DNA of 64,000 bases from Alphaproteobacteria bacterium (GTDB lineage: Bacteria > Pseudomonadota > Alphaproteobacteria > Rs-D84 > CACZYB01), in assembly GCA_009785175.1 (NCBI GenBank), contig WQWV01000002.1:22749-86748 (forward strand). Reading direction: 5' to 3'. The notes beneath the pieces are model-generated. The model saw only the letters and a list, made by a program, of their open reading frames with translations. It searched no databases and was not told the DNA's origin. Positions 2,479 through 61,560 of this stretch are shown here, in pieces (within the stretch, counting starts at the first letter, position 1; each line of letters opens with the position of its first letter). The position numbers were made by a program, and so were the translations under genes.

Positions 2479-3381
2479 ATGGTGAAAAAGGACTTCCTTA
2501 AATCGGCGGCGGGAAAAATAAAGCGGAAGTATGACCGCGCGTTGGCATACGTCGCACTTACCATAATGGGCATAACCGGCTGTGGATTTTTGGCCAAGAA
2601 CATCGAGGCTTCGGATTTCGTAAACATGCCGCAGGCCGCCCTTACCTGGACCCCTAAACCAAGCAGGCTTGTAAACATAACTATGGCCGATGCGGCATAC
2701 ATTGACGACGCGAATTTCCTTAAGAGCCAGATCGACAAGATGGACGCCGCGGCGCCGCATGTGATACGGCAACTTCTGGGATTCGGCACTACATTCAAAA
2801 TTCTTTCCAACGAGCCGAGATATTATGGCTACAACATGTTCATAGACTTCGCGTTCCCGGATACGCTATATATCATGCGCTCGACTATTCAGAATGTTCG
2901 GAACGGGCAGAGGGGGGAGTTATCATTCTGGAAAGACATAGCGCACGAAGCCCAGCACTTCGCCCAGATCGAGGGAAGAATGTTCAATCACTTCGCCAAC
3001 ATGACTCAAGAGGAGAGCAAGATAGCCTTCACATTCCTCGAGCTTGACGCGCAGGTCAAGGGCTTGATGAATTTCGACCTTAGGAAATACAGAAGCGTCG
3101 GCGCGCGAGATCGCGCCCTTAGGCAGCAGATAGACCAATTCCGCGATAATATAGCAAGGATAAAAAGAGCGGAGAGGAACAGGTTCGGCAGCGCGGAAGG
3201 GGTAGGCTTTGTCGACGATACGCGCCTTCTTAATTTTATGCGAGGGGCGGCGGTGCTTGGCGATCCAAGGATTGCGGGATATTCGGACGCGGCGCTTGCC
3301 TATGTCCTTGCGGTTATAAAAGCTATGGACAGCGGCGAGCGTTCGGTTGCTCGAGCCCAGACGGTTCAGGCGACAAGGTAG
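2479..3381 (+). CDS. hypothetical lipoprotein/membrane-anchored protein with HEXXH motif (putative zincin-like metallopeptidase)
   Basis: 300 aa; N-terminal hydrophobic LTIMGITGCGF (lipobox-like); IAHEAQHFAQ contains HExxH. Confidence 0.45.
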   Translation: MVKKDFLKSAAGKIKRKYDRALAYVALTIMGITGCGFLAKNIEASDFVNMPQAALTWTPKPSRLVNITMADAAYIDDANFLKSQIDKMDAAAPHVIRQLLGFGTTFKILSNEPRYYGYNMFIDFAFPDTLYIMRSTIQNVRNGQRGELSFWKDIAHEAQHFAQIEGRMFNHFANMTQEESKIAFTFLELDAQVKGLMNFDLRKYRSVGARDRALRQQIDQFRDNIARIKRAERNRFGSAEGVGFVDDTRLLNFMRGAAVLGDPRIAGYSDAALAYVLAVIKAMDSGERSVARAQTVQATR

Positions 3382-3403
3382 TATAAATAACTAAGAATAA
3401 ACC

Positions 3404-3590
3404 CAAATCCCCTCCGGTGGACAGCTCGAGGCAACGAGAGCGCCGGTTCCGTTGTAAAGATTTCAAGCTACGCGTTCACGCGCGCACGCACAGCGTGGGG
3501 GCGGCGTGGTGCGCGCAGCTCTTCGAGCTGGAGAACACAATGTATAAAAAGATTTGTGCGTAGGCGGGATCGCCAAATCGTTGGCGTTTG
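3404..3590. repeat. composite intergenic mosaic repeat (R2 core GGACAGCTCGAGGCAACGAGAGCG + R3 hairpin with loop CAGCGTGGGGGCGGCG + 57-bp unit + GCCAA hairpin); second copy at 37503-37790
   Basis: 57-mer gcgcgcagctcttcgagctggagaacacaatgtataaaaagatttgtgcgtaggcgg is identical at 3511-3567 and 37700-37756; R2 core shared at 3417-3442, 37515-37540, 26268-26290. Confidence 0.85.
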
Positions 3591-3625
3591 TGTGGGCGAT
3601 GGGAGCGGGAGGCTCGCAGGGGATA

Positions 3626-4369
3626 TCAATCCAATGCGGCGTGAAGATCGCCCCAGGCGTCTTTCCTTAGCGACGTGTCCTTTACCATAGCGGATAGTGA
3701 AAACGTTGTGTGAATCGGAATGCCATTCATTATCGGTTTTTCGGCACGCCAGATGGCAACGGAATCGCCCCGGGCGAATAAAATATTCGGGGCGGCGGAG
3801 CCTAGTGCCAAGATTGCCTTAGGCTTTATCAATTCTATTATGCGGGCAAGAATCGGGGCAAGGAATTTCATCTCGGGCGCGGTTAATGCGCGGCGGCCGG
3901 GCGTGATAAATGCGCTTGCCGGAATCGCGTGGACTTCGGCTTCGCTTAGACCCGCTTTCGCAAGCATGGATTTCAATAGCGCGCCCTCGGCACCATCGGA
4001 GAATGCCGCGCCGGATTTGTCGTCTTCTATGGTAGGCAATTCTGAAATGATAAGTAATTTCGGGGCGGCCGCGGCGCCAAAACCCTTTACTATGGTGGTT
4101 GCGAATTTGGCGAGCGGGCAATCGGAAAACGCAGCGAGTTTTTCGTATAGTTCATCAAGCGTGTTTGCTGTGGCTGAGATGCTTGCTGCCTGTTCGACAA
4201 TATCGTCGGTGGAAAGTAGCGGAGTGTCGGAGGTTGCCTCGACCGGCGCAAATGCAGGCGCTTTATTTGACGTGGCAAGCCGAGCCGGCGAGTCAGAAAA
4301 TTCGTATTCCTCGCCCGCGTCCAAAAGGAAGCGTAGCGTTGTCATCGCGTCGGCGGCGGAGTTTTGCAT
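3626..4369 (-). CDS. uracil-DNA glycosylase superfamily protein (family-4-like fold, catalytic GEAPG/Fe-S Cys motifs not conserved), N-terminal low-complexity extension
   Basis: C-terminal 130 aa align block-wise with family 4 UDG (…GAEGALL…KPKAILALG…GIPIHTTFSLSAM…AWGDL), but GEAPG is SELPT and CRPP is absent; start chosen at MQNSAAD (4369), the longer ORF reaches 4456. Confidence 0.55.
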   Translation of the reverse strand: MQNSAADAMTTLRFLLDAGEEYEFSDSPARLATSNKAPAFAPVEATSDTPLLSTDDIVEQAASISATANTLDELYEKLAAFSDCPLAKFATTIVKGFGAAAAPKLLIISELPTIEDDKSGAAFSDGAEGALLKSMLAKAGLSEAEVHAIPASAFITPGRRALTAPEMKFLAPILARIIELIKPKAILALGSAAPNILFARGDSVAIWRAEKPIMNGIPIHTTFSLSAMVKDTSLRKDAWGDLHAALD

Positions 4370-4414
4370 GGAGATATTATAATATAAGGATTTGGGAATG
4401 CAAGGAGAGAGCAA

Positions 4415-4500
4415 GCCATGAACGCCGAGCTGGCGGCGACGCACTTGTGCGCGCATGCCTGCGTGGGGGCGGCGGTCATGCGCGAAGCGAGCAAGCTCGC
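4415..4500. repeat. R3 structured repeat copy (5' arm AACGCCGAGCTGGCGG + hairpin CGCGCATG/CATGCGCG with loop CCTGCGTGGGGGCGGCGGT)
   Basis: conserved loop shared with copies at 3480, 9086(rc), 32623, 46736, 61501; stem sequence differs but remains complementary. Confidence 0.8.
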
Positions 4501-4567
4501 TGGAAAGCTTATATATACTTCACTGGATACTGCGATCAAGTCGCAGTATGACTGGAAGGGTATGAAA

Positions 4568-5245
4568 TTACTTACACCCCATCTCGTCGGCGCGGCCGGC
4601 GGCGAAGGATTTATATTCGGCGCTTGGCGCTGATTCGACCACTGTAAGCAGAGCTTTGCACGCTTCGGCCTCCATGCCCAATTCCGAGAAAGAAAGGCCC
4701 ATATAGAGGAGATTTTCATAGAATTCCTCGTCGCGGGTATCGCCCTTGGCCTTGATATTGTCGGCAAACGCTATCACCGCGCCCTCGAAATCGCTGTTGT
4801 CGAAAAGGGAGAGAGCGTATTCGAACGAAGCTTCTTCATCCTCGGCGGCGATGGCCGGCACTATGGGTTTGGGAGCGGGCGCTATGGCCGAAGGGGCGGC
4901 GGGCGGCGCAACGGGTTTAACGGGCTCGGGCCTGGCTGCTATGGGCGCGGGCGCTGGGCGGTTTCTTAAATCTTCCATCTGCTTCCTGAGCTCGGCGTTT
5001 TGGCGACGAAGGCCCTCGACCTCGGCATTGGCGTCGGTGATCTGAAGCTGAAGATCCTTCGTCTGGCGCTCGGATTGGGTGCGAAGATTGCGAAGTTCGA
5101 AATTCGAGCGCTCGAGCTCGTCGGTCATACGGGCGATCGATTGTTCGTATGCGTCCATGCGCTCGACAAGGCTATTTATGGCCGGATTGGCGGACGCAGC
5201 GGCGGCGGTGAAAAATGCTACTATGAATACGGCTAGTTTTCTCAT
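4568..5245 (-). CDS. periplasmic coiled-coil/TPR protein, CpoB(YbgF)-like
   Basis: signal peptide MRKLAVFIVAFFTAAAASA, heptad coiled coil, Pro/Ala linker, C-terminal TPR-like block; architecture of CpoB. Confidence 0.5.
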   Translation of the reverse strand: MRKLAVFIVAFFTAAAASANPAINSLVERMDAYEQSIARMTDELERSNFELRNLRTQSERQTKDLQLQITDANAEVEGLRRQNAELRKQMEDLRNRPAPAPIAARPEPVKPVAPPAAPSAIAPAPKPIVPAIAAEDEEASFEYALSLFDNSDFEGAVIAFADNIKAKGDTRDEEFYENLLYMGLSFSELGMEAEACKALLTVVESAPSAEYKSFAAGRADEMGCK

Positions 5246-5361
5246 GTTTTCCCTCTGGCGCCATAATATAGGATGGAAATTTTTTAATCAATAGGAATTT
5301 TTTACTTGACAAAATATTATAATATGATAGATTATGTCCAGGTAAAACAAGCGAGGTAAAT

Positions 5362-5979
5362 ATGTATGTCCCACGCGATGTAATATACTACTCGAAAATC
5401 GAAGCCGTCCCCTCAAACACAGAGGGCACCAAATCCGGCCCCACTAAAATTATCAGCTCGCGAGAAGTCGTAAAAAGTGTTCTTGAATATGAAAACCGTA
5501 AAGAATATATAACTTTGGACAACAACTGTATACCCTCGATCGGAATCCCCGGCGAGTTGGCTTTCGAAGGGGTGAAAAACGAGATCGCGCCCGACGAAGC
5601 TCTTCACATCGTCGTTGCGACAATAAAAGAAATCACAAAGCAGTATGCCAAGATCGTTCCGACCATTTTCAGGAGGGGCAAATACTGCTCGTTCGATTCG
5701 GTGCAACGTCGGAAAATGGATAATGAATACAGTCAGTTCATAAACGCCGCGGACGTCCTTATCGCGCTTATGGGCGAAGTGGATTTCGTCGAGATGGAAG
5801 ATTCCAAACTTCCGCTTGGCCGTGAACGCGGGCGGCACAACGTCCTTTATATGGCGAAAATGCTACGCGACAAAGCGGCGCTTGCGCGGGCGGGGGAAAT
5901 AGTGGTCAACACCGAGGCGGCGTATTGGGAACGGCTGGCGCAATTAAAGCAGGAACAGGTGCAATTGGTCATGGGTTAG
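5362..5979 (+). CDS. hypothetical protein (205 aa), AT-rich promoter region upstream
   Basis: ORF with AGGTAAA SD; TTGACA at 5308 upstream; no recognisable motif. Confidence 0.45.
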   Translation: MYVPRDVIYYSKIEAVPSNTEGTKSGPTKIISSREVVKSVLEYENRKEYITLDNNCIPSIGIPGELAFEGVKNEIAPDEALHIVVATIKEITKQYAKIVPTIFRRGKYCSFDSVQRRKMDNEYSQFINAADVLIALMGEVDFVEMEDSKLPLGRERGRHNVLYMAKMLRDKAALARAGEIVVNTEAAYWERLAQLKQEQVQLVMG

Positions 5980-5980
5980 T

Positions 5981-7063
5981 TTAGTCGGCGGTAGGCTCGC
6001 CTTCGGGCTTTTTCTTTTCCTTGATCATGCGGCGCAGCATAGCCGTTTGCTTTAGGAAATCCGCCACCGGTTGCGCGGGATAGCCCGACACGATTTCGCC
6101 ATCATTTAGATTCTGTATCACGCCAGCACCGGCACCGACCTGAACCCTATCGCCAAGCGTAAGGTGGCCGTTGATTCCGGCCTTGGGCCCGATAAGGCTC
6201 CAATCGCCGATCGTGGTCGAGCCCGCGATGCCAGCCATCGCCGCTACGATACAATTCTCGCCGAGCTTACAATTATGCCCTATCATAACAAGGCTATCGA
6301 TTTTCGTGCCGCGGCCGATCACCGTGTCGCCCTGTGCGCCCCTATCGACCACAGAGTTAGCACCGATCCACACGTCGTCCTCGAGTATAGTCTGGCCGAT
6401 TTGAGGGACCCATTGGTGGCCCATCGCGTTGGTGTGCCAGCCGAAGCTGTCGCCCCCGATGTTCGCGCCTTCGCCGATATGCACGCGCTTGCCAAGCGTG
6501 GCGTGCGAGATGACCGCGTTTTCAAGAATGTCGCAGTCGTCGCCGATTTCTACGCCGGCCTTGATTTTCGCGCCGCTTGCGATGAACACGCGCGCGCCGA
6601 TTTTTGCGCCCTCGCCAATGGACGCGAAGTCGTCGATGTGCACGGACGATTTATCCTTGAATGTCGCGGTCGGGTCGACGAAGGCCATTTCGGATATGCC
6701 GTTTATCTCGCGCGATTTGTCGCGATAGAAAAAGTTGCTAAGCTGTATGAATGCGCCCTTCGGGTCGAAGGTGATTAGCTTCGCGACGCCCTCGGGTATC
6801 AATTCCGCGTCGTTTGGAGCGACAAAACACGCGGCGGCTTTTAAGTTTTTAAGCAGCGCTTTGAATTTTTCCGTGCGCGCGATTAGGTCAGAGGCGCTGC
6901 CGGCGCTTGAAAAAAAGCAAACCGAATTCTCGTCCGCGTCTTCTAGCCCCGAAAGTTTCGTTATCGTGCGGCCGCCGTCGCCTTCGAGTTCCGCGCCAAT
7001 CATGTCGGAGATTTCGGCAAGGCTTATGCCGTCGGATACGTTGTAAAATCTTGATAATGTCAT
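5981..7063 (-). CDS. lpxD: UDP-3-O-(3-hydroxyacyl)glucosamine N-acyltransferase
   Basis: 360 aa with long left-handed beta-helix hexapeptide repeats (…IGDDCDILENAVISHATLGKRVHIGEGANIGGDSFG…) and LpxD-type N-terminal domain. Confidence 0.85.
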   Translation of the reverse strand: MTLSRFYNVSDGISLAEISDMIGAELEGDGGRTITKLSGLEDADENSVCFFSSAGSASDLIARTEKFKALLKNLKAAACFVAPNDAELIPEGVAKLITFDPKGAFIQLSNFFYRDKSREINGISEMAFVDPTATFKDKSSVHIDDFASIGEGAKIGARVFIASGAKIKAGVEIGDDCDILENAVISHATLGKRVHIGEGANIGGDSFGWHTNAMGHQWVPQIGQTILEDDVWIGANSVVDRGAQGDTVIGRGTKIDSLVMIGHNCKLGENCIVAAMAGIAGSTTIGDWSLIGPKAGINGHLTLGDRVQVGAGAGVIQNLNDGEIVSGYPAQPVADFLKQTAMLRRMIKEKKKPEGEPTAD

Positions 7064-7154
7064 ATCGCTATTGTAGCGGGATTTTGGGGCGGAGTCAAGG
7101 GAATGCTTGACTTATCATGTATTGTTATTATAATTGCCAGTGAAAGGAAATATT

Positions 7155-7853
7155 ATGAAACTTGCCATCAATCCCGAGATTTTCGCAAAGTATGCGCCGA
7201 TAAGGATTGGCGTTTTGGTTTTAGAAAATATAAACAACTCGTCCGATGTAGGCGCGTTTTTCGATGCGGAATATGCCGCGCTCGAGGAGGGTATCGCCGC
7301 AAAATTCGAGGGCGTGGAATTGGCGTCCTATCCGGTCGTGCGCCGCTGGCGCGAGATATACAAATCCTTCGGCGAGAAGGACGCGCGCTCGTCCATCGAG
7401 GCGCTTATCAAACGCGTGAAAAACGGCAAGGGGCTTTATCGCGTCAACCCGCTTGTCGACGTGTATAATTTGGCTTCGTTGAAATTCGAAATGCCGGCTG
7501 GCGGGGAAAATGTCGCGGCGATCGGCGGCGATATGGAGCTTACTTTCGCGGACGGCTCGGAGAAATTTTTGCCTATCGGAGCGACGGATACGGAAACGCC
7601 CAACGTCGGCGAAGTCGTTTACAAATTCGGCTCGACGATCGTATGTCGGAATTTTAATTACCGCGAGTCGGACATCACCAAGTTGACGGCGGATACAACG
7701 CGCGCGATCATAGTGTTCGAGGATGCGCTTGTAGAGGACGGGCGGTTGTCGGAAGCGCTTGCCTATATGGGCGAGAAGGCGGCGGAATTGCTTGGCGCGA
7801 AGGTCGTGCGTAGTGCGGTGCTTTCGGCCGATGCGAATGAAGTAGAGATTTAG
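7155..7853 (+). CDS. B3/4 domain protein (PheT B3/B4-like tRNA-binding domain, stand-alone)
   Basis: 232 aa; AAGGA 8 nt upstream of ATG 7155; sequence pattern of DUF B3/4 family (…YRVNPLVDVYNLASLKFEMPAGGENV…). Confidence 0.55.
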   Translation: MKLAINPEIFAKYAPIRIGVLVLENINNSSDVGAFFDAEYAALEEGIAAKFEGVELASYPVVRRWREIYKSFGEKDARSSIEALIKRVKNGKGLYRVNPLVDVYNLASLKFEMPAGGENVAAIGGDMELTFADGSEKFLPIGATDTETPNVGEVVYKFGSTIVCRNFNYRESDITKLTADTTRAIIVFEDALVEDGRLSEALAYMGEKAAELLGAKVVRSAVLSADANEVEI

Positions 7854-7860: not shown

Positions 7861-7896
7861 GACTGGATTCCGGCTCGGGGCCGGAATGACCATGAC
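7861..7896. repeat. R1 hairpin repeat copy (ACTGGATTCCGG-ctcggg-GCCGGAATGAC variant)
   Basis: member of family ACTGGATWCCGGKTCRAGCCCGGHATGAC found 6 times in window. Confidence 0.8.
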
Positions 7897-7900: not shown

Positions 7901-8380
7901 CTACTTGCCGGAGTTTTTTCCCTTGAATTTGGAGAGAATAGCCTTGTCGGATTCCTTTTTATCCTTCAATTCTTCCTTTTCACACTTGGCGATGGCTGCG
8001 GCATGTGGCTTTTTGCCATAGCAGATTCTTTTTTCGCCGATAAAAACTCCATCTTCTATTATAAGCAATTTTTCGTTGCCAAGAGATATTTCAAACTTGT
8101 GGAAGCACTCACTATTCTTAGGGTCGCTGATTAGGCGAATATCGGATTTTTTAATGCGTTTGACAATTTCGTCCGAAATTTTCCTGTTCGTTCTGCTATC
8201 GGCATCAAGTTTTAGGGTTTCAAGCCATGATTCACTATCTTCATCGGCATTAAGAATGTCTTCTATCTTGTATGATATTTTTTGCGATGTCCACTTCGCG
8301 AACGGGGAAACCTTGAACCCGACGCGCAATACGTGCATGCCGCCCCTAAAGATGCTTTTAACGCTGTTTCTTATGACCAT
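7901..8380 (-). CDS. hypothetical protein (159 aa), GC-poor, downstream of poly-G promoter
   Basis: ORF with AAAAAGGAGAAAATC-ATG SD; lower GC than neighbours. Confidence 0.5.
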   Translation of the reverse strand: MVIRNSVKSIFRGGMHVLRVGFKVSPFAKWTSQKISYKIEDILNADEDSESWLETLKLDADSRTNRKISDEIVKRIKKSDIRLISDPKNSECFHKFEISLGNEKLLIIEDGVFIGEKRICYGKKPHAAAIAKCEKEELKDKKESDKAILSKFKGKNSGK

Positions 8381-8409
8381 GATTTTCTCCTTTTTGGCTA
8401 TGATTTCCT

Positions 8410-8436
8410 ATTCTACCCCCCCCCGTCGTTTGTCAA
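8410..8436 (-). promoter_or_regulatory. TTGACA-[aacgac+G9]-TAGAAT promoter with homopolymeric G9 tract (C9 on + strand 8416-8424) in 15-nt spacer
   Basis: read on minus strand: cTTGACAaacgacgggggggggTAGAATaggaaatcatagccaaaaaggagaaaatcATG. Confidence 0.55.
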
Positions 8437-8589
8437 GTATTTTAACTATCTGCAGTCGACGGTAGAACTTGTGGGACGAAAATAAAGAGCGGACAATCGC
8501 ACGTCCGGGCAAGCACGAACTTGTGAGTGCCAACGCCCGGGTGGGGCGTGCGTTGGCCGCCTGGCGGCGCGCATACAAATATACGTTAT

Positions 8590-9059: not shown

Positions 9060-9150
9060 CTCCGATAAAGCTCCGTTAGGAGCTTGCGCGCACCACGCCG
9101 CCCCCACGCTGTGCGTGCGCGCCCTTCGGGCTCGCCGCCCTGCTCGGCGT
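9060..9150. repeat. R3 structured repeat copy, reverse orientation
   Basis: rc reads ...acgccgagcagggcggcgagcccgaagggcgcgcacgcacagcgtgggggcggcgtggtgcgcgca... Confidence 0.8.
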
Positions 9151-11674: not shown

Positions 11675-13168
11675 ATGAAAAACGTAAACAAAAATACCCC
11701 CCCCCATAACAAATTCTGGTGCGACCTTTATCACCTTACAATGGCGCAGGCCATGTTCCTTGAGGGAACGCACAACGACCCCGAAACCCAGGAGATGTTC
11801 ATTCGCAAGAACCCCTTCAAGGGAGAGTTCACCGTCGTAGCAGGTCTTGCACCTGTGATAGAATGGATCGCCCAATACGGATTTTCGGACGACCAGCTTG
11901 CCTATCTTGCCAGTTTGAAAAACACCAACGGCACGCCCAGGTTCAAGCCGGAATTCCTAGAGCTCCTTAAAAACGAACCGCTACAAATAACCATAGACGC
12001 CATGCCCGAGGGAGAAATAGTATTCCCCAACGAACCCATCGTGCGGATTTCCGGGCCGGCATGGCAGGTAAACCTTGTCGAATCGGCGTTCCTTCAATCC
12101 ATAAACTCGGCATCGCTTATCGCCACAAAGGCCGCGCGCATAAAGGGCGCCGACGAAGGAAAAATCTTCGCCGAGTTCGGACTGCGCCGCGCCCAAAACC
12201 CCATGATGGCATCACGTAGCGCTATCATCGGCGGGTTCAACTCGACCTCGAACGTAGACGCAGGTTTCCAATACGGAATCCCCGTGTCCGGAACCCACGC
12301 GCACAGCTTTATCATGCGTAAAAAGACCGAGCAGGCCGCTTTCGAATCATGGCTTAAACACAATCCAGACAACGCCATGGTGCTGATCGACACATACGAC
12401 ACGATCAACGGGATCAAGCTTGCCATCGAGGCGTCGAAAAAGACCGGTGTGCCGTTGATGGGAGTGCGACTTGACTCGGGCGACCTTGCGGCGCTTTCGA
12501 TCGAGGTTAGGCAGCTACTTGACGCCGCCGGCATGAAGACCACCAAGATCGTGGCAAGCAACGACTTGAACGAATACAAGATCACCGAACTTAAAAAACG
12601 CGGAGCCAAAATCGACTTCTATGGCGTAGGCACCGACGTCGCGACCGGCGGCGACCAGCCCGCGCTTGGCGGAGTATACAAGCTCAAGAAAACCCAAGAC
12701 GGCAAGGTCATAAAATGCTCGGAAGACCCGATCAAAACAACTATACCCGGAGCCACGGAAACTATCCGAATCCTTAGCGAAACCGGCAACTTCAAGCGCG
12801 ACGTCATCACGACCCTAGGGTTCGTGGCGGCAAATGCGGGACGCCTTAGCAAAGACATGAACGGATCAAATATGGACGGATCCTTCGCATGGCCGTATAC
12901 AAAGGGCGAGCGGTTCTATAAACCGATGAGACGAATGGTAAGCCGAGGCAAGGTCAACCCGACGGCAACCAAGCGTTCGGTCATGGAGATCGCCGCGGAC
13001 GCCAAGGCAAACCTTGCAAAACTCGATGCCTCGCACAAGCGCATAACCGTTCCCGCCAAATATCCATATGAAGGCGAATATCCGACAGCCTATCCGGTCG
13101 ACGTCGAAATCGGTCTTTTCAAAGAGCGTAGACGCATGATCGAACAAGCAAAACAGAAACAAAAATAA
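11675..13168 (+). CDS. pncB: nicotinate phosphoribosyltransferase (type II PRTase; could alternatively be nicotinamide PRTase)
   Basis: 497 aa; N-terminal DLYHLTM motif of NAPRT/NAMPT family; adjacent pncA favours nicotinate specificity; C9 tract in codons 8-10. Confidence 0.7.
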   Translation: MKNVNKNTPPHNKFWCDLYHLTMAQAMFLEGTHNDPETQEMFIRKNPFKGEFTVVAGLAPVIEWIAQYGFSDDQLAYLASLKNTNGTPRFKPEFLELLKNEPLQITIDAMPEGEIVFPNEPIVRISGPAWQVNLVESAFLQSINSASLIATKAARIKGADEGKIFAEFGLRRAQNPMMASRSAIIGGFNSTSNVDAGFQYGIPVSGTHAHSFIMRKKTEQAAFESWLKHNPDNAMVLIDTYDTINGIKLAIEASKKTGVPLMGVRLDSGDLAALSIEVRQLLDAAGMKTTKIVASNDLNEYKITELKKRGAKIDFYGVGTDVATGGDQPALGGVYKLKKTQDGKVIKCSEDPIKTTIPGATETIRILSETGNFKRDVITTLGFVAANAGRLSKDMNGSNMDGSFAWPYTKGERFYKPMRRMVSRGKVNPTATKRSVMEIAADAKANLAKLDASHKRITVPAKYPYEGEYPTAYPVDVEIGLFKERRRMIEQAKQKQK

Positions 13169-24961: not shown

Positions 24962-25236
24962 GGGGGAGTTTCAAATCATAAACCCAAATCTTATGCAACG
25001 GGCGGATAAGCCAGGCACGAAGTGCCGCAGCGAATCAGGGCCCCGTTGTAGAAGATTTATGCTTTTCGCGCTTTGCGCGAGGGGGGGGGCGCCCTGCGGG
25101 CTTGGAAAGCCTATGGTTTGATTTGCCTTAAAACTCTCCGCCCGGGGAGTTTTGGCGGCGACCCGCCTTCGCATAGCTCCGGCGAGGCAGGGGCTAGTGT
25201 TGGCGCACTCGCGGGGGAAGTTTCATTATACGTTGC

Positions 25237-26250: not shown

Positions 26251-26550
26251 AAATCTCCCCTTGTGGACAGCTGGACGAGGCAACGCCGAAGTGCCAGCAA
26301 GGTTCCATAAGGGGAGATTTGTGTTCAAGCGGCAAAGCCGCGCCTGCCCCCTTTAATAACAATGGTTTAATTTGCCCAAAAAAGCCAAGAGCAGTTGGCT
26401 TTTGTTAGGCGATGCTTGCATGGGCTCGCGGGGAATTTTTTCTATTGTCATTCCGGCCACCGGGCCGGAATCTAAGCCGACTGGATACCGGGTCGAGCCC
26501 GGTATGACAAGAGATTAAATCCCCCTTGGTGGTGCCTTGGGGGATTTTTG
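26251..26550. repeat. composite intergenic repeat block: R2 element (26251-26320), GCCAA hairpin/terminator (26385-26410), tandem hairpins incl. R1 copy (26449-26508), R2-mini hairpin (26515-26550)
   Basis: each sub-element has copies elsewhere in window. Confidence 0.8.
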
Positions 26551-26566: not shown

Positions 26567-26929
26567 CTAGCGCTGAAAGCTTGTATAATAGGCGACGGGT
26601 TTGCGGTTATGGGTATGATAGCCTACAGCAAGGCGGCATACTTCGCCACGAAAAGGATCCTTGTGCTCGGCCTTCAATATATTCTTATCGGCAAGGCATT
26701 TGGTCATGATCGTATTATATAAAAACTGGCCTTCTTTTTCCTTGTCGGTGAATATGTGTCCGTCAACCCAGACCAAGTAATGTCCGGTGCGGCGTTCGAT
26801 ATATGCTCTTGTCCTATCCAAGGAATTAAGAATAGAGTAATTGCCATTCACTATTGCAAACTTGACGCGATTGTATTGGATATCTTTGAGCAGATCACTT
26901 ATTTGGGGTTGTCCGTAAACTTCGGTCAT
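26567..26929 (-). CDS. hypothetical protein (120 aa) downstream of poly-G promoter
   Basis: AGGAG 8 nt upstream of ATG 26929; longer ORF start 26968 would lie in the promoter. Confidence 0.5.
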   Translation of the reverse strand: MTEVYGQPQISDLLKDIQYNRVKFAIVNGNYSILNSLDRTRAYIERRTGHYLVWVDGHIFTDKEKEGQFLYNTIMTKCLADKNILKAEHKDPFRGEVCRLAVGYHTHNRKPVAYYTSFQR

Positions 26930-26964
26930 ATTAAAAACTCCTTTGGTTTTTGTTATTAATAGAC

Positions 26965-26994
26965 ACAATACCCCCCCCCGGAAGATTTTGTCAA
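26965..26994 (-). promoter_or_regulatory. TTGACA-[aaatcttcc+G9]-TATTGT promoter with G9 tract (C9 on + strand 26971-26979) in 18-nt spacer
   Basis: same architecture as 8410-8436 and 32971-33000. Confidence 0.5.
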
Positions 26995-27013
26995 GTGGAA
27001 ACTTAGGGATATT

Positions 27014-32572: not shown

Positions 32573-32690
32573 AGCGAAGCCACAGCCGCCAGCAGGGCGA
32601 AAGAGCAGTATTGCGCGCACCCCTGCGTGGGGTGGCGGTTGTGCGCGCAGCGAGGCGAGCTCGCTGGAAAGTCAATGTATAAACGTGAAA
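32573..32690. repeat. R3 structured repeat copy (hairpin GCGCGCAC/GTGCGCGC, loop CCCTGCGTGGGGTGGCGGTT) + conserved 3' arm GAGCTCGCTGGAAAG
   Basis: 3' arm also shared with copy at 4486-4520. Confidence 0.8.
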
Positions 32691-32872
32691 ATGCCCCGGC
32701 CAAGGAGGAGAGAGAGAATAAGGAGGGAATGGCCGGGGCTACTATGTCATACCGAAATGAGGGGTCGTCCCGGTTAAACACAGACCTGCTGAAAAGCAGA
32801 TAGCACTATTTTAGACAGGATTTACATTATTTGTCAACCGATTTCTTAAAATATTATTTTGTCAAGGTATAA

Positions 32873-32893
32873 TATCCTGTATTTACAGGGATA
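32873..32893 (+). promoter_or_regulatory. inverted repeat TATCCTGTA-tt-TACAGGGATA (candidate operator) ~80 bp upstream of poly-G promoter
   Basis: 9/10 complementary arms. Confidence 0.3.
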
Positions 32894-32970: not shown

Positions 32971-33000
32971 TTGACAAAATCCTGTGGGGGGGGGTAGATT
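32971..33000 (+). promoter_or_regulatory. TTGACA-[aaatcctgt+G9]-TAGATT promoter with G9 tract (32986-32994) in 18-nt spacer, driving the 33032-34666 operon
   Basis: -35 32971-32976, -10 32995-33000, AAGGA SD then ATG 33032. Confidence 0.55.
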
Positions 33001-33031
33001 GTGTCTAGAATAATAGTTCAAAGGATTAATA

Positions 33032-33448
33032 ATGAAAAGATTCCAACTTTCGGTAAGTAGCGGCAAGGCGGTGGAGAATCACCTGGTCGAATGCAAAAAC
33101 TGCTCCAACAAATGCGCCATGCAAAACCGTGTCGACGAAAGCCCTCGGGACGCAATAAACGGATACGAGGAAGTAGTAAACTTCCTTATGAAAACACACG
33201 GCTGCATCGTGGCGCGAAATGTCGTCGCAAGGCTTCTGGGTTTTAACTGGAGAGCAAGCAAAAAGGACGTCGAATTCCTTATCTTTGCCGACAAGGGCGG
33301 AAAGAACGGCAAAATAAAACTTGCAATCAATTTCCCGGAAGATTATTCCGATATGGAGAAGGCTATAGTAATGATCGACGATATGAAGCACGTCATACAA
33401 CACCACAACAGGTCCCCTATAGCAGGCGCCAAAAAAGGCGGGAAATAA
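33032..33448 (+). CDS. novel small protein, paralog 1 of 3 (N-terminal Cys cluster C-x2-C-x3-C; conserved KIxLxINF…DM block)
   Basis: 138 aa; shares N-terminal CxxDCxxC-NKP-like motif and C-terminal GKIKLAINFPEDYSDMEKAIVMIDDM block with next two ORFs; GC-poor. Confidence 0.55.
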   Translation: MKRFQLSVSSGKAVENHLVECKNCSNKCAMQNRVDESPRDAINGYEEVVNFLMKTHGCIVARNVVARLLGFNWRASKKDVEFLIFADKGGKNGKIKLAINFPEDYSDMEKAIVMIDDMKHVIQHHNRSPIAGAKKGGK

Positions 33449-33450
33449 AC

Positions 33451-33879
33451 ATGAACCGTTTCGAATTTAACATCAACTATGCCGGCAAGGGAATTATCGA
33501 TTGCGCGGTCGATTGCAAAAGCTGCCTTTATAAACCCGAGCGCTGGGACCGCTCGAACTGTGTAAGGCTTCAACCGCACGAAACCGTCGACGGCGCCGCA
33601 AACGTCGGGCTATACCTTACCAACGAAGCGAAAGATTGCGCGGTGGCGGCCAAGGTCGGCTCGTCGCTTGTCCAGAAATACAACGGCGGCGCGCTTTCGA
33701 TTTCCATACCGAAAACAAAAAGCGGCGCGTGCAACAAAATCGAAATCAACCTTTTCGTGCCCGAGGCGGACATGGGTGGCGACTATATTCGATCGCTTGT
33801 CGGCAAAATAGCCACGGAAATCGAGCGTTTCGACATAACCAAGGGCGCCACCATGGCATCACTTAAAGGAAGCAAGTAA
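33451..33879 (+). CDS. novel small protein, paralog 2 of 3
   Basis: 142 aa; IDCAVDCKSCLYKPE…NKIEINLFVPEADMGGDYIRSLVGKI; 2-nt intergenic gap. Confidence 0.55.
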   Translation: MNRFEFNINYAGKGIIDCAVDCKSCLYKPERWDRSNCVRLQPHETVDGAANVGLYLTNEAKDCAVAAKVGSSLVQKYNGGALSISIPKTKSGACNKIEINLFVPEADMGGDYIRSLVGKIATEIERFDITKGATMASLKGSK

Positions 33880-34349
33880 TGAAAACTCTCTCCTTCACAA
33901 TGAAAAACGACGGCGCGGACGTCAAGACATGCTCGATCGACTGTGCGAACTGTCTCAACAAGCCGGCGGACGCGGAGTCGTGCATAAAAATCGCGCCAAG
34001 CGAAGCCATACTTAAATGGACCTTCGTAATGAAATACCTCGAGCAATTCAAGGGCCGAAACCTTGGCGGAGATATAGGCGAAACCGGCATAGAAAAAATG
34101 GGCTGCATTATCATCAGGGACATATACAACACAGTAATGCAATACGGAAAAAGCATACGTATACCCGAACTTCGCATGTCCAAAGCAACGGAGGGCGAGG
34201 GGAAAATCGGCCTTAGCCTTAACGTTTCCAAAAAAGACATGGACAACGATCGAATCATAGAGTTCATCGACCGAATAGCCTATGCTATTATGGAGCGCGA
34301 CAGCTCGATGCTCGAGACCGCCCAAGGTCAGCTTCAATACGGAGGCTAA
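33879..34349 (+). CDS. novel small protein, paralog 3 of 3
   Basis: 156 aa; CSIDCANCLNKPADAESC…GKIGLSLNVSKKDMDNDRIIEFIDRI; start overlaps previous stop. Confidence 0.55.
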   Translation: MKTLSFTMKNDGADVKTCSIDCANCLNKPADAESCIKIAPSEAILKWTFVMKYLEQFKGRNLGGDIGETGIEKMGCIIIRDIYNTVMQYGKSIRIPELRMSKATEGEGKIGLSLNVSKKDMDNDRIIEFIDRIAYAIMERDSSMLETAQGQLQYGG

Positions 34350-34351
34350 AA

Positions 34352-34666
34352 ATGCAAATCATAACAAAAAAGTATTTCGGCATAGGGGCGGTTGCGAAGA
34401 AACTTGTTTTGATGGAATCGCATGCGATGAGGGAAATAGGAGAATACCTTATGATGAGGCAAGCCGTATTCGCCCTGCCCCCCTATAACGAGTGGTATGA
34501 GATAATACTTACCGTGCGCGGAGAGGCCAATACCACGATAGAAGTTTGCGCTACCAGAGATTTGGCGCCAGCCCAGCGACGGGCGGTAGAAACAGACGCG
34601 AAGGTGATGCAAGGCATAATCGACCATTACAAAAATAAAAATAATACGGGCAAAAGTGGACGCTAG
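34352..34666 (+). CDS. hypothetical small protein (104 aa), fourth gene of operon
   Basis: 2-nt gap after paralog 3. Confidence 0.45.
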   Translation: MQIITKKYFGIGAVAKKLVLMESHAMREIGEYLMMRQAVFALPPYNEWYEIILTVRGEANTTIEVCATRDLAPAQRRAVETDAKVMQGIIDHYKNKNNTGKSGR

Positions 34667-34669
34667 TTT

Positions 34670-35164
34670 TCAAGACGTCCTTGAGACCTTCATCAACCGC
34701 TGCTTCTCGCGTTTCCATTCGCGTTCCTTGATCGTCGCGCGTTTATCGAAATTCTGTTTGCCGGTGGCGATGGCTATGAGGAGTTTCGCTTTGCCGCGGT
34801 CGTTGAAATAAAGGCGCAGCGGGATTATTGTAGAACCTTTCGCGGAAAATGCTCCGGCGATTTTTTCGATTTCCTTTTGTTTCATCAAAAGGCGACGCGG
34901 GCGTTTTTCAGTGCGGGCGGCGAAGGGGCTTTCGGCCTCGAACTTGCCGATGGTGATATTGTTTATAACAAGACCCTTGGCGTCCGGGCTTACGTATCCG
35001 TCGGCGATATTCGCGCGGCCAAGGCGGAGCGATTTGACTTCGCCACCCGTGAGGCTTAGGCCTGCTTCAAACGTTTCGCCGATGGCGTAGTTAAACCTGG
35101 CGCGGCGGTTTTCGGCAACCACGCCCGTCGAGATGAATTTCTGTTTTACTTCTTTTTTGCTCAT
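34670..35164 (-). CDS. smpB: SsrA-binding protein SmpB
   Basis: 164 aa; …RARFNYAIGETFEAGLSLTGGEVKSLR… SmpB signature. Confidence 0.9.
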   Translation of the reverse strand: MSKKEVKQKFISTGVVAENRRARFNYAIGETFEAGLSLTGGEVKSLRLGRANIADGYVSPDAKGLVINNITIGKFEAESPFAARTEKRPRRLLMKQKEIEKIAGAFSAKGSTIIPLRLYFNDRGKAKLLIAIATGKQNFDKRATIKEREWKREKQRLMKVSRTS

Positions 35165-36012
35165 TTTTCATTACCCCTACTGGATTCCGGGTCAAGCCCG
35201 GAATGACGAAAGGAGAGCCCCAAATCATACATCTCATTTTTATTAAGTCCAAATAAATCCGCGGCGGTGCTTGCGGCTTCCTTTAGCGGCAACGATTTAA
35301 GCAAGCGTTTCATTATCTTTGCGGCGTCCACGTTGTCGGCGGTCTTTTCCGCTGGCGCGATGAGGCCAACTATTTCGCCCTTCGGCGATTTGAAGTGCGC
35401 GGCGAGGTCGGAGGCGGTGCCGGACTGAACCTCCTCGTAGAGTTTCGTCATCTCGCGCGCGATTGTTATTTGCCGGTCGGGCATGATTTCCGCGATTGCT
35501 TTTAATGTAAGCGGCAGGCGAACGGCGGATTCGAAAAATATCACCGTGGCGTCGAGGTTGCTGTGCCGCTCAAAAAATTCCTTGCGCGCCTTGGCTTTTT
35601 CCGGGACAAAGCCTGCGAACAAGAAACAATCGCTTGGAAGGCCCGAGAGCACCAGCGCGTTGATGGCCGAGCATGCGCCGGGAACGGACGTGATGAAAAC
35701 TCCCTTGCGGCGCAATTCGCGCACAAGTTTGAATCCGGGATCGGAGATCAGCGGCGTGCCGGCGTCGCTTATCAACCCTATCCTTTTGCCGGAGGCTATA
35801 AGTCCCGCGATTTCGGCCGTCTTGCCCGCCTCGTTATGATCGTGCAAACTTATCAACTTGGATTTAATCCCAAGGTGGGAGAGAAGCTTGCCCGCAACGC
35901 GCGTATCCTCGGCCGCGATAAAATCCATGGCGCCAAGCGTTTCCACCGCCCGGCTTGAGATATCGCCAAGGTTGCCGATCGGCGTCGCAACTATGTAAAG
36001 TCCAGCTTGCAA
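35161..36012 (-). CDS. rsmI: 16S rRNA 2'-O-ribose C1402 methyltransferase RsmI (tetrapyrrole methylase fold); C-terminal ~15 aa are encoded by an R1 repeat
   Basis: LYIVATPIGNLGDIS…AEDTR N-terminus typical of RsmI; divergent from lpoA as in E. coli yraL/yraM. Confidence 0.85.
   Translation of the reverse strand: MQAGLYIVATPIGNLGDISSRAVETLGAMDFIAAEDTRVAGKLLSHLGIKSKLISLHDHNEAGKTAEIAGLIASGKRIGLISDAGTPLISDPGFKLVRELRRKGVFITSVPGACSAINALVLSGLPSDCFLFAGFVPEKAKARKEFFERHSNLDATVIFFESAVRLPLTLKAIAEIMPDRQITIAREMTKLYEEVQSGTASDLAAHFKSPKGEIVGLIAPAEKTADNVDAAKIMKRLLKSLPLKEAASTAADLFGLNKNEMYDLGLSFRHSGLDPESSRGNEK
35179..35207. repeat. R1 hairpin repeat copy inside 3' end of rsmI ORF
   Basis: ACTGGATTCCGGGTCAAGCCCGGAATGAC. 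Confidence 0.8.
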
Positions 36013-37478: not shown

Positions 37479-37502
37479 AAATTCTTAATCAAGCATAACC
37501 CC

Positions 37503-37790
37503 AAATCTATACCTATGGACAGCTCGAGGCAACGAGAGCGAGGTTCCATGGGAATAGATTTGTAGCTACGCGCAAAGCGCTCCCTCCCCCCCCATTTTTT
37601 TGATAACACAGGTTTAATCTGTCTCAAACAAAACATCGACGTAGCGATACTCGCATCACGTCCTAGCGCCACTACGCCGGCAGGGCGGAAGCGCCAATGG
37701 CGCGCAGCTCTTCGAGCTGGAGAACACAATGTATAAAAAGATTTGTGCGTAGGCGGAACGCCAAGAGCAGTTGGCCTTTGTGAGGCGGCG
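37503..37790. repeat. composite mosaic repeat, second copy (R2 core, C8/T7 tract, R3 fragment, identical 57-mer at 37700-37756, GCCAA hairpin)
   Basis: see 3404-3590. Confidence 0.85.
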
Positions 37791-46700: not shown

Positions 46701-46800
46701 CAAGCGACGCCGAGCAGGGCGGCAAGCGGTGTATACCGCGCGCGTCCAGCGTGGGGGCGGCGGAGCGCGCGGAGCCCTTCGGGCTGGAGGGTCAAATTAT
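46697..46800. repeat. R3 structured repeat copy (stem CCGCGCGC/GCGCGCGG, loop GTCCAGCGTGGGGGCGGCGGA)
   Basis: 5' arm GACGCCGAGCAGGGCGG conserved. Confidence 0.8.
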
Positions 46801-47439: not shown

Positions 47440-49215
47440 TTGATCACCTGGAACTCGAACGGCAAAGTCGGCGGCAAGGGAGCTGCGTTATTTCGATTGA
47501 CCGATATGGGTTTGCCGGTGCCGGAATTCTTCGTCGTGTCGACCGACGCGATGGCGGCATTCATAAAAGAAAACGATATACGGGCCGGAGATTCCAAGGC
47601 TATCATGCGCGGAAAACTTTCGCCTGAGCTCGAGAAGGAAATTACCGCCGCCGCTGCTGCGCTGGGGGGGGGTAAATTCTCCGTTCGTTCGTCCGCGACG
47701 ATGGAGGACGGAGCCGAAAAATCCTTCGCGGGGCAATTTTCTTCTTTCTTGAATGTCGACAAAAAGGGCTTGCCTGCGGCGATCAAAAAAGTGTGGGCAT
47801 CGTTGTTTTCCGGCGGAGCGGCCGCGTATGCCGGGCGCGGATTCGATTCACATTCCATGGCAGTCATAGTTCAAAAGATGGTGAAGCCTTACGCCGCAGG
47901 AGTCGCCTTCTCGATCAACCCTATGGCCGCCGATAAAAACTATATGCTTATCGAATCGTGCGCGGGCACGGGCGACAAGCTTGTGTCCGGAAAAATCACG
48001 CCCTCTAAATATTTCGTGCGTAGATCGTCCAAAAAAACAGACGCGGTTTATGGGCGCCGGCATATATCCGAATCATCGCTTAAAAAGCTTGCCTCGTTCG
48101 TGCTTGAAATCGAGCAGGAATTCGGCACGCCGACCGATGTAGAATGGTGCGCGTCGGCAAGCGGCAAAATCCATATACTACAGGCCAGGCCGATAACATC
48201 CTTCGCGCCGGCACCGATCGAATACAGAAAACTTTTCTCGCGCCCGCATTCGATAATGAAACTTCAACTTTACAGACATGCCGAAGACGACGGGTTGAGG
48301 GCGCTTACGAACGGGGATTATCATTACACGCCTTTGTTCACATACGACGCGGCAAGGGACACCGTCGACGTTCATTACAATTTCAATGCGCCCGAGCAGC
48401 ACCCGGCAAATATCCTTCGCGAGATGGATTGCCGATACGCATGGACGGCCAACAAATACCGCGCGGCGGAGAAGGCGGTTCCGGCGGTGCTTGAATACAT
48501 ATCGGGAAAAAGGAAATTCGAGGCCGAAAAATTCCTTGGGCTTTTGCGCATGGTTTATACGCTTTCGAATCTTGGCAACGTGTCGGAGTATACGAAATCG
48601 AAAAGAATGCGGCGACTTGCGGCGGGATTCAGAAAGAAATACGACTATGTCGCCTATCGCGCCGAGGACTTCTTGATCGAAAAGGCGGCCGAGGTCGCGG
48701 CGCCGGAACTAAGGGACGACCTTCGCTTCTTAACCTTCGAAGAAGTGTTCGGAGGACGGCGCGTGTCGCGGCGCGAAATCGACGTCCGTAAAAAAGGGTT
48801 CGTGTATTTCGGCGGAGAGTTGACATGCGCGGCAAGCCTTAAACCGGTGCTTGAGAAAAATAATTTTTTCATCGCGGAGGAGGCGCCGAAACACGGAGCG
48901 CTTAGGGGACAGTCGATATGTCGCGGCGTGGCCACCGGTGTCGTGCGAATCATCTATGGCCCGAAGGACTTCGGCAAATTCCGGGCGGGCGACATAATAG
49001 TCGCGCCGATGACCTTGCCAAGCTTCACGCCGTTGATGAAAATCGCCGCCGCAATCATAACGGACGAGGGCGGTGCGACGTGCCATGCCGCGATAGTCGC
49101 GCGCGAGCTTAAGGTTCCATGTATCATAGGCGTGAAAAACGCGACGTCGGTTTTGGCGGACGGAGAGAAAATAAGGGTCGACGCGAATACCGGCGCTATT
49201 TCCTATGAACGCTGA
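47440..49215 (+). CDS. PEP-utilising enzyme family protein (pyruvate,water dikinase-like N-terminal ATP-grasp + C-terminal phosphohistidine mobile domain); TTG start; G9 tract in codons ~75-77
   Basis: C-terminal GGATCHAAIVARELKVPCIIGV; N-terminal PPDK_N-like. Confidence 0.7.
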   Translation: MITWNSNGKVGGKGAALFRLTDMGLPVPEFFVVSTDAMAAFIKENDIRAGDSKAIMRGKLSPELEKEITAAAAALGGGKFSVRSSATMEDGAEKSFAGQFSSFLNVDKKGLPAAIKKVWASLFSGGAAAYAGRGFDSHSMAVIVQKMVKPYAAGVAFSINPMAADKNYMLIESCAGTGDKLVSGKITPSKYFVRRSSKKTDAVYGRRHISESSLKKLASFVLEIEQEFGTPTDVEWCASASGKIHILQARPITSFAPAPIEYRKLFSRPHSIMKLQLYRHAEDDGLRALTNGDYHYTPLFTYDAARDTVDVHYNFNAPEQHPANILREMDCRYAWTANKYRAAEKAVPAVLEYISGKRKFEAEKFLGLLRMVYTLSNLGNVSEYTKSKRMRRLAAGFRKKYDYVAYRAEDFLIEKAAEVAAPELRDDLRFLTFEEVFGGRRVSRREIDVRKKGFVYFGGELTCAASLKPVLEKNNFFIAEEAPKHGALRGQSICRGVATGVVRIIYGPKDFGKFRAGDIIVAPMTLPSFTPLMKIAAAIITDEGGATCHAAIVARELKVPCIIGVKNATSVLADGEKIRVDANTGAISYER

Positions 49216-56974: not shown

Positions 56975-57240
56975 AAATGGGTATACCAGAATTTATACGA
57001 CGCCAGGACCCTGATTTCTTCGATAAAAGGGATAGGGATTTGAAACGTAGAAATGACAGAGGGAGAGGTGGCGGAAGGTCATATTCACGCAGCTATTCAT
57101 CGCGCTCTGATTATGTATCGCCAAACAGTATGGAAGGAAGATGGAGTGCAAAACCAACGGAGCTTTCTCAACTTGAAAAAGACGAAGCCGCGCGGCGCGT
57201 GAAACAAACACTTGCAAAAATGAAAGGAAACAGGAAATGA
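56971..57240 (+). CDS. hypothetical low-complexity basic protein (R/S/G-rich), GC-poor
   Basis: ORF overlapping comM stop. Confidence 0.35.
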   Translation: MKMGIPEFIRRQDPDFFDKRDRDLKRRNDRGRGGGRSYSRSYSSRSDYVSPNSMEGRWSAKPTELSQLEKDEAARRVKQTLAKMKGNRK

Positions 57241-57812
57241 GGCACTATAGAGAACTCGCGATGGTCGACGCATACGTCCGGCAGGCAAACAGCACGATAA
57301 AGCTTGTCGAAGACGACAACATAATCACAATTAGGAAGCGCTTGGATTACAATTGGCTTGACGCGGACTATAAATTCACCAACAAGGTATACAACGTGCT
57401 TGTTCCCGAATTGCGTTCGCCGATAAAGCTTAGCCGGACGAATGTTTATAAATCCGACGGGGGGGGGTGGGAATATTACGGCTGCTATTCGTCCATATAT
57501 GTAGGATCGCTTACCCCATACAGCTATTCATCGTCAGTAAACTGCGACGCGGACGAAATGTTCAACCTTATTGAAAAGCAAATCGAAAACGGAAAGAAAT
57601 GTATCCTTGCAATCAGATATGAAAATAGAAACCAAAAACCGGGCGACGCCTCGATGGAACATAGAAAAAGACAGGCGCAAGCCCACGCCGACTGCGATGC
57701 GGAAGCATTCTTTAAGATTAGAAAAGCCGCAACGAAAGTCGCAACTGTGCAAGACATAGCGACGGCGAAAAAGACCCTTAAGGCCATAATGAACGACAAA
57801 CGGAAAAGGTAA
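57237..57812 (+). CDS. hypothetical protein (191 aa) with in-frame G9 tract (57459-57467, codons GGG GGG GGG)
   Basis: ORF; GC-poor. Confidence 0.45.
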   Translation: MRHYRELAMVDAYVRQANSTIKLVEDDNIITIRKRLDYNWLDADYKFTNKVYNVLVPELRSPIKLSRTNVYKSDGGGWEYYGCYSSIYVGSLTPYSYSSSVNCDADEMFNLIEKQIENGKKCILAIRYENRNQKPGDASMEHRKRQAQAHADCDAEAFFKIRKAATKVATVQDIATAKKTLKAIMNDKRKR

Positions 57813-58027
57813 AATAGAAAGTAAGCAAAAACTGGTCAAAGAAGAAAGCATACGTCTTTAACAAAAGCAAGGAATTGATACCCTCGCCCGATGCTAAAAT
57901 AGAACGACCGTGCAAAATCCGCGTTGGCCGCTATAAAGCACCTTATACTATAATTATCTGGATTGCATCTGCTACGCGTTCCCTCTGTTCCCGGCTTGTG
58001 GGGGGGGGGTAATGACGAGAGAGAGCT

Positions 58028-61456: not shown

Positions 61457-61466
61457 TCCAGAGCAA

Positions 61467-61560
61467 GCCAGAACGCCGAGCTGGGCGGCCGCGCAGTATT
61501 GCGCGCTGACCTGCGTGGGGGCGGCGTTCAGCGCGCAGCTCGATAAATCGAGCTAAAAAA
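61467..61560. repeat. R3 structured repeat copy (stem GCGCGCTGAC/GTTCAGCGCGC, loop CTGCGTGGGGGCGGC)
   Basis: 5' arm GAACGCCGAGCTGGGCGG. Confidence 0.8.

Follow-up and report, generated by a model that had tools for sequence, protein, structure and literature searches.

The 64-kb window analyzed here (64,000 nucleotides of contig WQWV01000002.1, from an uncultured alphaproteobacterium) carries four open reading frames (ORFs) packed on the plus strand at 33032-34666, between macB and smpB, which make up a real, lineage-restricted and very narrowly distributed orphan accessory operon. The operon comes from an 88.8-kb contig of an NCBI metagenome-assembled genome (MAG), where it has the locus tags FWD15_01210 to FWD15_01225. 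Our preferred explanation of the whole locus, held tentatively and at a little less than an even chance, is that a phase-variable promoter with a tract of nine G residues (G9) controls a cytoplasmic, metal-knuckle hetero-oligomer with a function in biological conflict. We infer the switching of the tract, the binding of metal, the formation of a complex and the biological role, and we regard the contingency or conflict role as the weakest step of the explanation.

The first three ORFs encode paralogs A, B and C: ORF1 (FWD15_01210, 33032-33448, 138 amino acids (aa)), ORF2 (FWD15_01215, 33451-33879, 142 aa) and ORF3 (FWD15_01220, MCL2439113.1, 33879-34349, 156 aa). ORF4 (FWD15_01225, MCL2439114.1, 34352-34666, 104 aa) is without the Cys cluster of the other three. 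The gaps between the ORFs are 2, -1 and 2 nt, so that the tight packing reported in the first-pass annotation holds, but its middle gap of 0 nt is an overlap of 1 nt between the ORF2 stop and the ORF3 start (TAATG). Every start is preceded by a purine-rich Shine-Dalgarno sequence 6-7 nt upstream, with the AAAGGA at 33020-33025 (+) lying 6 nt before the ORF1 ATG. This layout is probably that of an operon with translational coupling.

The promoter of the operon, TTGACA-N18-TAGATT (+), matches the consensus at 10 of 12 positions. Its -35 hexamer lies at 32971-32976 in the genome-typical context cTTGACAAAat and its -10 hexamer at 32995-33000, which would place the transcription start near 33007; by sequence-level assignment the ORF1 ATG is 31 nt past the promoter. 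G9 (32986-32994) forms the 3′ half of the 18-nt spacer (32977-32994) and adjoins the -10 box. A promoter with such a tract had been proposed at the outset, with a spacer said to be mostly G9; the promoter and the tract are there, but the tract makes up half of the spacer. G9 is as long as a hypermutable simple repeat needs to be (about 8 nt or more for homopolymeric G/C), and as it stands between the -35 and -10 boxes its length sets their spacing.

Full-length BLASTP bore out the proposed paralogy of ORF1-3 (E = 6e-6 for ORF1 with ORF2, 1e-10 for ORF2 with ORF3 and 2e-7 for ORF1 with ORF3), at 22-28% identity. The three proteins have in common an N-terminal M(K/N)RFxF start, a Gly at position 11-12 and the motif [C/H]x3Cx2C, with one more Cys 4-12 residues past it. 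The motif reads H17x3C21x2C24x3C28 in ORF1, C18x3C22x2C25 followed by C37 in ORF2, and C18x3C22x2C25 followed by C35 in ORF3. A further, invariant Cys stands where the second helix begins (C58, C63 and C76, respectively), and C22, C25 and C63 (ORF2 numbering) are among the invariant columns of the alignment. A "GKIxLxLNVPxxD" block then leads into a long C-terminal helix. The N-terminal Cys cluster with a later Cys in each paralog, and the conserved C-terminal block, are thus as first described. A zinc or small iron-sulfur (Fe-S) knuckle would be the most economical reading of the Cys motif.

The products of ORF1-4 are predicted to be soluble and cytoplasmic because they have no hydrophobic segment and no signal peptide. 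The surface role considered at first finds no place here, with no signal peptide or transmembrane segment in any of the four and a top 19-residue hydropathy of at most 1.07. For ORF1-3 the predicted topology, drawn from AlphaFold 2 (AF2) models, is a β-hairpin, the Cys knuckle and an α-α-β-β-α core. The predicted order of secondary-structure elements in ORF4 resembles this paralog core minus the knuckle. ORF4 was also considered as a fourth paralog, for which the sequences give no support: hhalign gave E = 0.47, there was no hidden Markov model (HMM) match and only the order of elements was similar.

That these proteins resemble no known family, as the first-pass annotation held, was confirmed. 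Searches with ORF1-4 against Pfam (E up to 10), PHROGs, NCBIfam (E up to 1) and PADLOC-DB v2 (E up to 1) gave no matches, and a PDB sequence profile search with the operon proteins gave a best E of 0.17. When ORF3, ORF4 and the paralog alignment A2 were used in word-indexed searches of 5.8 billion protein clusters, the window's own proteins alone were returned. When a HMMER profile of the three paralogs was run against 1.84 billion representatives (standing for ~15 billion proteins), it recovered the window proteins and two others, P0003 and P0004. P0004 was rejected as a low-complexity false positive, which leaves P0003 (137 aa) as the sole true relative from this search. Scans of JGI metagenome contigs, GTDB genomes and IMG/VR gave no relatives of the operon proteins, and neither the rest of the window nor the poly-G-promoter loci described below yielded further paralogs. 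The paralog family is therefore known from two loci only, among ~15 billion proteins.

The second locus is an 881-nt ENA contig (L003, ERZ27257305) on which P0003 sits. In the same order as in the window, it carries the C-terminal part of an ORF1-like gene, then the ORF2-like P0003, and last the beginning of an ORF3-like gene. The ORF1-like fragment is 38% identical to ORF1, and P0003 is 45-46% identical to ORF2. In Nei-Gojobori comparisons of ORF2 with P0003, the proportion of synonymous differences (pS) was 0.72, which is saturated, and that of nonsynonymous differences (pN) was 0.36 (dN/dS ~0.2). For ORF1 and its L003 ortholog, pS was 0.62 and pN 0.39 (dN/dS ~0.4). As pN is well below pS, these are real protein-coding genes under purifying selection. 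The orthologs (38-46%) are closer to one another than the paralogs are (22-28%), and the triplication is therefore older than the split of the two lineages; judged from these identities, the ORF1-3 paralogs are ancient. The earlier description of them as rapidly diverged does not fit the shared paralog order, the higher identity of orthologs than of paralogs or the dN/dS of ~0.2-0.4.

In the mechanism that we propose, a single sigma-70-type promoter, TTGACA-N18-TAGATT, probably starts transcription of all four cistrons, and replication slippage of ±1 G would change the spacing of the -35 and -10 boxes. With G8 the spacing would be the optimal 17 bp and expression would be higher; with G9 it would be 18 bp and expression low to intermediate; from G10 upward it would reach 19 bp or more, leaving the promoter weak or effectively off. 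The result would be heritable, reversible control of the four genes together. The knuckle proteins of ORF1-3 and the product of ORF4 would act jointly as a cytoplasmic hetero-oligomer. Its role would lie inside the cell and would not be that of a surface structure: a contingency or conflict function, for example in immunity or in defence from phage, from competitors or from mobile DNA. That the products act together is suggested by their coupled expression and by the same three-paralog order in the second lineage. A metal-knuckle accessory module, cytoplasmic and hetero-oligomeric, is our best guess for the proteins.

For the switch itself there is a precedent from experiments on Treponema pallidum, where promoter poly-G tracts vary from 7 to 11 nt, are mostly 9 nt, and set promoter activity by their length (PMC7864442). 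TP0126 is transcribed best at a 17-nt distance between -35 and -10, and tprL is active with G8 and inactive with G10 (PMC7864442). Wherever G runs of at least 8 nt have been tested, they have been hypermutable (PMC7864442; PMC5084427). By analogy with other promoters of this design, phase variation at the operon is plausible.

Long G/C runs are over-represented in the window. Runs of 5, 6, 7, 8, 9 and 10 nt number 41, 4, 0, 1, 7 and 1, respectively, a bimodal distribution, and a first-order Markov expectation gives ~1.2 runs of at least 8 nt (9 observed) and ~0.30 runs of at least 9 nt (8 observed). The nine tracts of 8-10 nt lie at 8416-8424 (-), 11697-11705 (-), 25081-25089 (+), 26971-26979 (-), 32986-32994 (+), 37586-37593 (-), 47664-47672 (+), 57459-57467 (+) and 58000-58009 (+), a density of ~1 per 7 kb, and TA directly follows the tract in six of them. 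Three are in promoter spacers, three are in-frame in ORFs and three are elsewhere in intergenic DNA.

Besides the operon promoter, two more promoters of the type TTGACA...G9-TA were found just upstream of orphan genes, at 8416 (-) and 26971 (-). These promoters, at 8380-8440 (-) and 26929-26995 (-), read TTGACA-(N6/N9)-G9-TA(GAAT/TTGT). The genes behind them, at 7901-8380 (159 aa) and 26567-26929 (120 aa), are Pfam-less and without a signal peptide, and have lower GC and a low GC content at third codon positions (GC3). The 26971 promoter and the ORF1 promoter have in common a 27-nt cassette with 89% identity. The in-frame tracts lie in codons 8-10 of a pncB-like gene at 11675-13168 (+) (its N-terminal sequence is all that points to a nicotinate phosphoribosyltransferase), as a GGG run in the gene of a PPDK_N/phosphoenolpyruvate (PEP)-utilizing enzyme at 47440-49215 (+), and in a 191-aa orphan at 57237-57812 (+). 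All three genes with in-frame C9/G9 tracts are in the intact (ON) frame.

The same promoter design recurs in other genomes. GTDB, with one genome per species, was scanned for the pattern CTTGACAAA-N3-7-GGGGGGGGGTA, and at least 118 loci were found; for CTTGACAAA-N3-7-G≥9-TA, ~5 were expected by our own calculation with uniform base composition. Among the matches listed, the -10 positions left free in the pattern settle on TAnAAT (88/120 have A at position 4 and 113/120 have T at position 6), the upstream flanks are A/T-rich, and 62 of 82 downstream ORFs have a signal-peptide-like start by a crude rule. Tract lengths in the same set are 9 nt (79), 10 nt (27), 11 nt (9) and 12 nt (5), and homologous cassettes in a single genome differ as G9 and G10, for example L010 and L014. 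At the level of sequence, then, the GTDB matches behave as real promoters. The listed loci (L004-L121) come from Clostridia, Treponema and other Spirochaetia, Alphaproteobacteria, Elusimicrobia, Verrucomicrobia, Bacteroidota and others; nearly all are from MAGs, and termite-gut Alphaproteobacteria and Rickettsiales MAGs are among them. No systematic description of this poly-G promoter pattern turned up in literature searches aimed at other points.

One of the termite-gut MAGs, that of the related Rickettsiales bacterium Gx485_bin9 (L078), contains four tracts of G9 within 7.2 kb (945-7181). Three of the four are in the signal-peptide-coding 5′ part of paralogous genes (…KKRT-GGG-K…, before the hydrophobic segment), which suggests a translationally phase-variable exported protein family. 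This placement is the one familiar from textbook cases of translational phase variation. The idea of a contingency locus gains indirect support from these observations taken together: the excess of G9 tracts in the window, their presence in other orphan promoters and in-frame in ORFs, the recurrence of the design in at least 118 loci, and the L078 tracts.

A number of observations weigh against our explanation, and those on the tract are also the grounds for a rival, in which G9 is a fixed, non-switching spacer module by the -10 box and the operon is constitutive or ordinarily regulated, an orphan and not a contingency locus. All three assemblies available (NCBI MAG, ENA and Logan) have G9 here, but they are probably all of one sample, so that their agreement is weak evidence. 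An exact look-up of SmpB for comparison of synteny and tract returned the same sample only, and no other strain was found; no direct evidence of variation was obtained. Seven of the nine window tracts are exactly 9 nt whatever the spacer (18, 18 and 15 nt in the three promoters), TA follows in six of the nine, and the 26971 promoter, with the same cassette, also has G9. The constant length of 9 nt could reflect a fixed element or a mutational equilibrium, and not selected ON/OFF states. There is also a second promoter-like site upstream, TTAAAA-N16-TATAAT at 32846-32873, from which tract-independent transcription is possible. However, a fixed G9 sits poorly with the hypermutability of G runs of 8 nt or more where tested, with tracts that range from 9 to 12 nt among the GTDB matches listed, and with homologous cassettes that differ by one G within a genome. 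Nor would it account for the bimodal run lengths with their gap at 7 nt, or for tracts placed in-frame in ORFs and in the signal-peptide-coding regions of a relative, the classic layout of a translational switch. We consider a fixed G9 doubtful, although it is a serious alternative.

The remaining points of this kind concern the proteins and their role. The Cys positions are not strictly kept: His takes the first of them in ORF1, and the pattern at the start of the L003 ORF3-like protein is a different one. The AF2 models are of medium confidence (pLDDT 65-70, ORF2 65.5), with the Cys loop below 50, and sequence kinship between ORF4 and the paralogs is unsupported (hhalign E = 0.47, no HMM match). 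The defence-related function suggested in the first-pass annotation found no match in PADLOC, and no other match backs a conflict role. Finally, the GC3 of the operon (0.54-0.65, vs. 0.61-0.67 in the neighboring genes) is near host-like and therefore gives no sign of recent transfer. The locus had been called GC-poor, which is only partly right: the total GC of the ORFs is mildly lower (0.47-0.53 vs. 0.51-0.58 in the neighbors), but GC3 is not markedly so.

Our explanation has the three paralogs acting with ORF4. They might instead form a tandem immunity-type array, for example of orphan immunity genes against the polymorphic toxins of competitors, with each protein acting alone. Such an array would fit small cytoplasmic α+β paralogs that lie in tandem within an accessory islet and have diverged strongly. 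The closest poly-G-rich MAGs found are from termite guts, which suggests a dense gut community for the host of the window (its own habitat is not established), and immunity-gene arrays are common in dense gut communities. However, there is no toxin, secretion-system or Rhs/contact-dependent inhibition (CDI) gene nearby, the neighbors being macAB-tolC, smpB and rsmI, and no Pfam immunity family was matched. The A-B-C order kept in a second lineage and the tight translational coupling favor a joint function, and a conserved metal-type Cys motif is unusual among immunity proteins. We judge an array of this kind to be improbable.

Very improbable, in our view, is that ORF1-3 are small Fe-S redox or radical S-adenosylmethionine (SAM)-like proteins, or zinc-binding anti-sigma (ZAS) regulators. 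Such an identity is brought to mind by the exact Cx3Cx2C of ORF2, ORF3 and P0003 and the Hx3Cx2C of ORF1, but Radical_SAM, Fer4 and zf-HC2 gave no match at E up to 10, and none was found in NCBIfam. The proteins are of 138-156 aa, with a predicted β-hairpin and small α/β core and neither a TIM-like barrel nor a helical anti-sigma domain; the motif is not positionally kept in the ORF3-like protein of L003, and no extracytoplasmic function (ECF) sigma gene is adjacent. Radical SAM was rejected on the Hx3Cx2C of ORF1, the lack of a PF04055-type profile match and the small α/β model of proteins of this size. ZAS was rejected as Hx3Cx2C is present in ORF1 only, zf-HC2 was not matched, the motif is predicted in a β-hairpin or loop and no sigma gene is nearby.

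The least probable of the alternatives, a remnant of a prophage or mobile element with small accessory or anti-defence genes, is favored by the orphan, small and tightly packed genes, by a total GC slightly below that of the neighbors and by fold searches in which, with no convincing match, the best BFVD hits were uncharacterized jumbo-phage proteins (non-significant; E = 0.024, TM 0.37), but it is opposed by the lack of a PHROG match, of any tblastn match in 50,697 phage records and of a relative in IMG/VR, by a tblastn search of 72,556 plasmids that gave one weak, non-significant match only (E = 0.4, inside a SusC/RagA gene), by host-like GC3, and by the absence of an integrase, tRNA or att-type repeats at the locus.

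The neighborhood of the operon is ordinary core genome. Upstream lie tolC-macA-macB, with the macB permease ending at 32561, and downstream lie the convergent smpB (34670-35164, (-)), rsmI, an LppC-like gene, rarA, rmuC, def and fmt. The ORF4 stop is 3 nt from the stop of smpB, with no terminator-like site between (34666-34670), and transcription of the operon would continue antisense into smpB.

In the gap between macB and ORF1, divergent from the G9 promoter, there is a candidate small RNA at 32640-32805 (-). Its candidate promoter is a minus-strand TTGACA-N18-TAAAAT (32837..32808) with 11 of 12 matches, and three hairpins come after it. The last of these has the arms CCCCGGCC and GGCCGGGG around a 27-nt CU-rich loop and is followed by CAUUUUC; the loop could serve as an anti-Shine-Dalgarno seed. 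The fold z-score is -5.1. An Rfam search of the gap upstream of ORF1 (E up to 5) gave no match.

The locus had also been described as flanked by repeat elements. Genome-wide intergenic repeats are indeed present, but no direct or inverted repeats bracketing the operon were found, and the description does not hold in the sense of a mobile element. A GC-rich palindromic element like those termed repetitive extragenic palindromic (REP; families D2 and D5) at 32577-32651, in the gap between macB and ORF1, is a dispersed copy and not a locus-specific flank, and the hairpin element at 35179-35213, beyond smpB, is a copy of a genome-wide intergenic repeat. REP-like elements (…CTGCGTGGGGGCGGCG…) are also listed at 4432-4478 and 61465-61539. 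A 35-nt hairpin repeat, ACTGGATACCGGGTCAAGCCCGGTATGAC, stands just 3′ of both orphan genes with poly-G promoters (7862-7896 and 26480-26514). Other dispersed intergenic repeats lie at 3388-3567 and 37486-37756, with 57 nt that are 100% identical (3511-3567 and 37700-37756), and a further group is at 3480-3517, 9085-9122 and 46737-46789. The C8 tract at 37586 is inside a mosaic of such repeats.

If G9 switches, the operon would be a contingency locus with an intracellular multi-protein cargo from a family seen twice among ~15 billion proteins; the promoter switches of poly-G type that are known serve mostly surface proteins or DNA-modification enzymes. The paralog family has no link yet to any open question. 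The promoter design reaches further, as a canonical -35 with poly-G adjoining the -10 is present at no fewer than 118 loci in many phyla, mostly uncultured and many of them gut-derived, and usually upstream of exported proteins. Its recurrence, together with the high tract density, suggests that slippage-based promoter switching is a widespread and under-described layer of heterogeneity in gut microbiomes, which would stand alongside the well-studied invertible promoters. The boldest form of our explanation is that ORF1-4 are a previously unknown intracellular, phase-variable, hetero-oligomeric metal-knuckle complex, such as an immunity or defence module, in an apparently termite-gut lineage with a dense poly-G phasome, where TTGACA-G9-TAnnnT promoters switch cytoplasmic orphans and not surface antigens. 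In that full form we think it distinctly unlikely.

In comparison with known systems, the poly-G promoter of the operon is interesting but not unprecedented, as the regulatory part belongs to a known type. Its cargo, ancient cytoplasmic Cys-knuckle paralogs with one partner, differs from what poly-G switches usually control and is without known relatives. Arrays of polymorphic-toxin immunity genes and acquired interbacterial defence clusters likewise consist of small cytoplasmic paralogs that stand in tandem within an accessory islet and are highly diverged. The operon is set apart from them by a conserved Cys/His knuckle, by a paralog order that is kept between lineages, by a lack of toxin or secretion genes in the vicinity and by the absence of any sequence or fold kinship to immunity families.

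Poly-G phase variation in a promoter spacer is known from Neisseria meningitidis (porA/opc type). The promoters of TP0126, tprE/G/J and tprL of T. pallidum are like that of the operon in having a G tract of ~9 nt between the -35 and -10 of a sigma-70 promoter, with a modal G9, a tract length that sets the spacer and an optimum of 17 nt (PMC7864442). Unlike in T. pallidum, a four-gene cytoplasmic orphan operon takes the place of an outer-membrane or surface protein as cargo, the promoter belongs to an uncultured alphaproteobacterium, and switching and its effect on expression are predicted only. The poly-G phasomes of Campylobacter and Helicobacter resemble the window in their bimodal excess of ~9-nt G/C runs, placed in promoters and in-frame in ORFs (PMC6321876, PMC2823697). 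The window differs from both in that a third of its tracts are in canonical TTGACA promoters and several are in housekeeping-like genes (pncB-like, PEP-utilizing enzyme). It is also far denser in tracts than C. jejuni, with 9 in 64 kb, whereas C. jejuni has roughly 30 poly-G tracts per 1.6 Mb.

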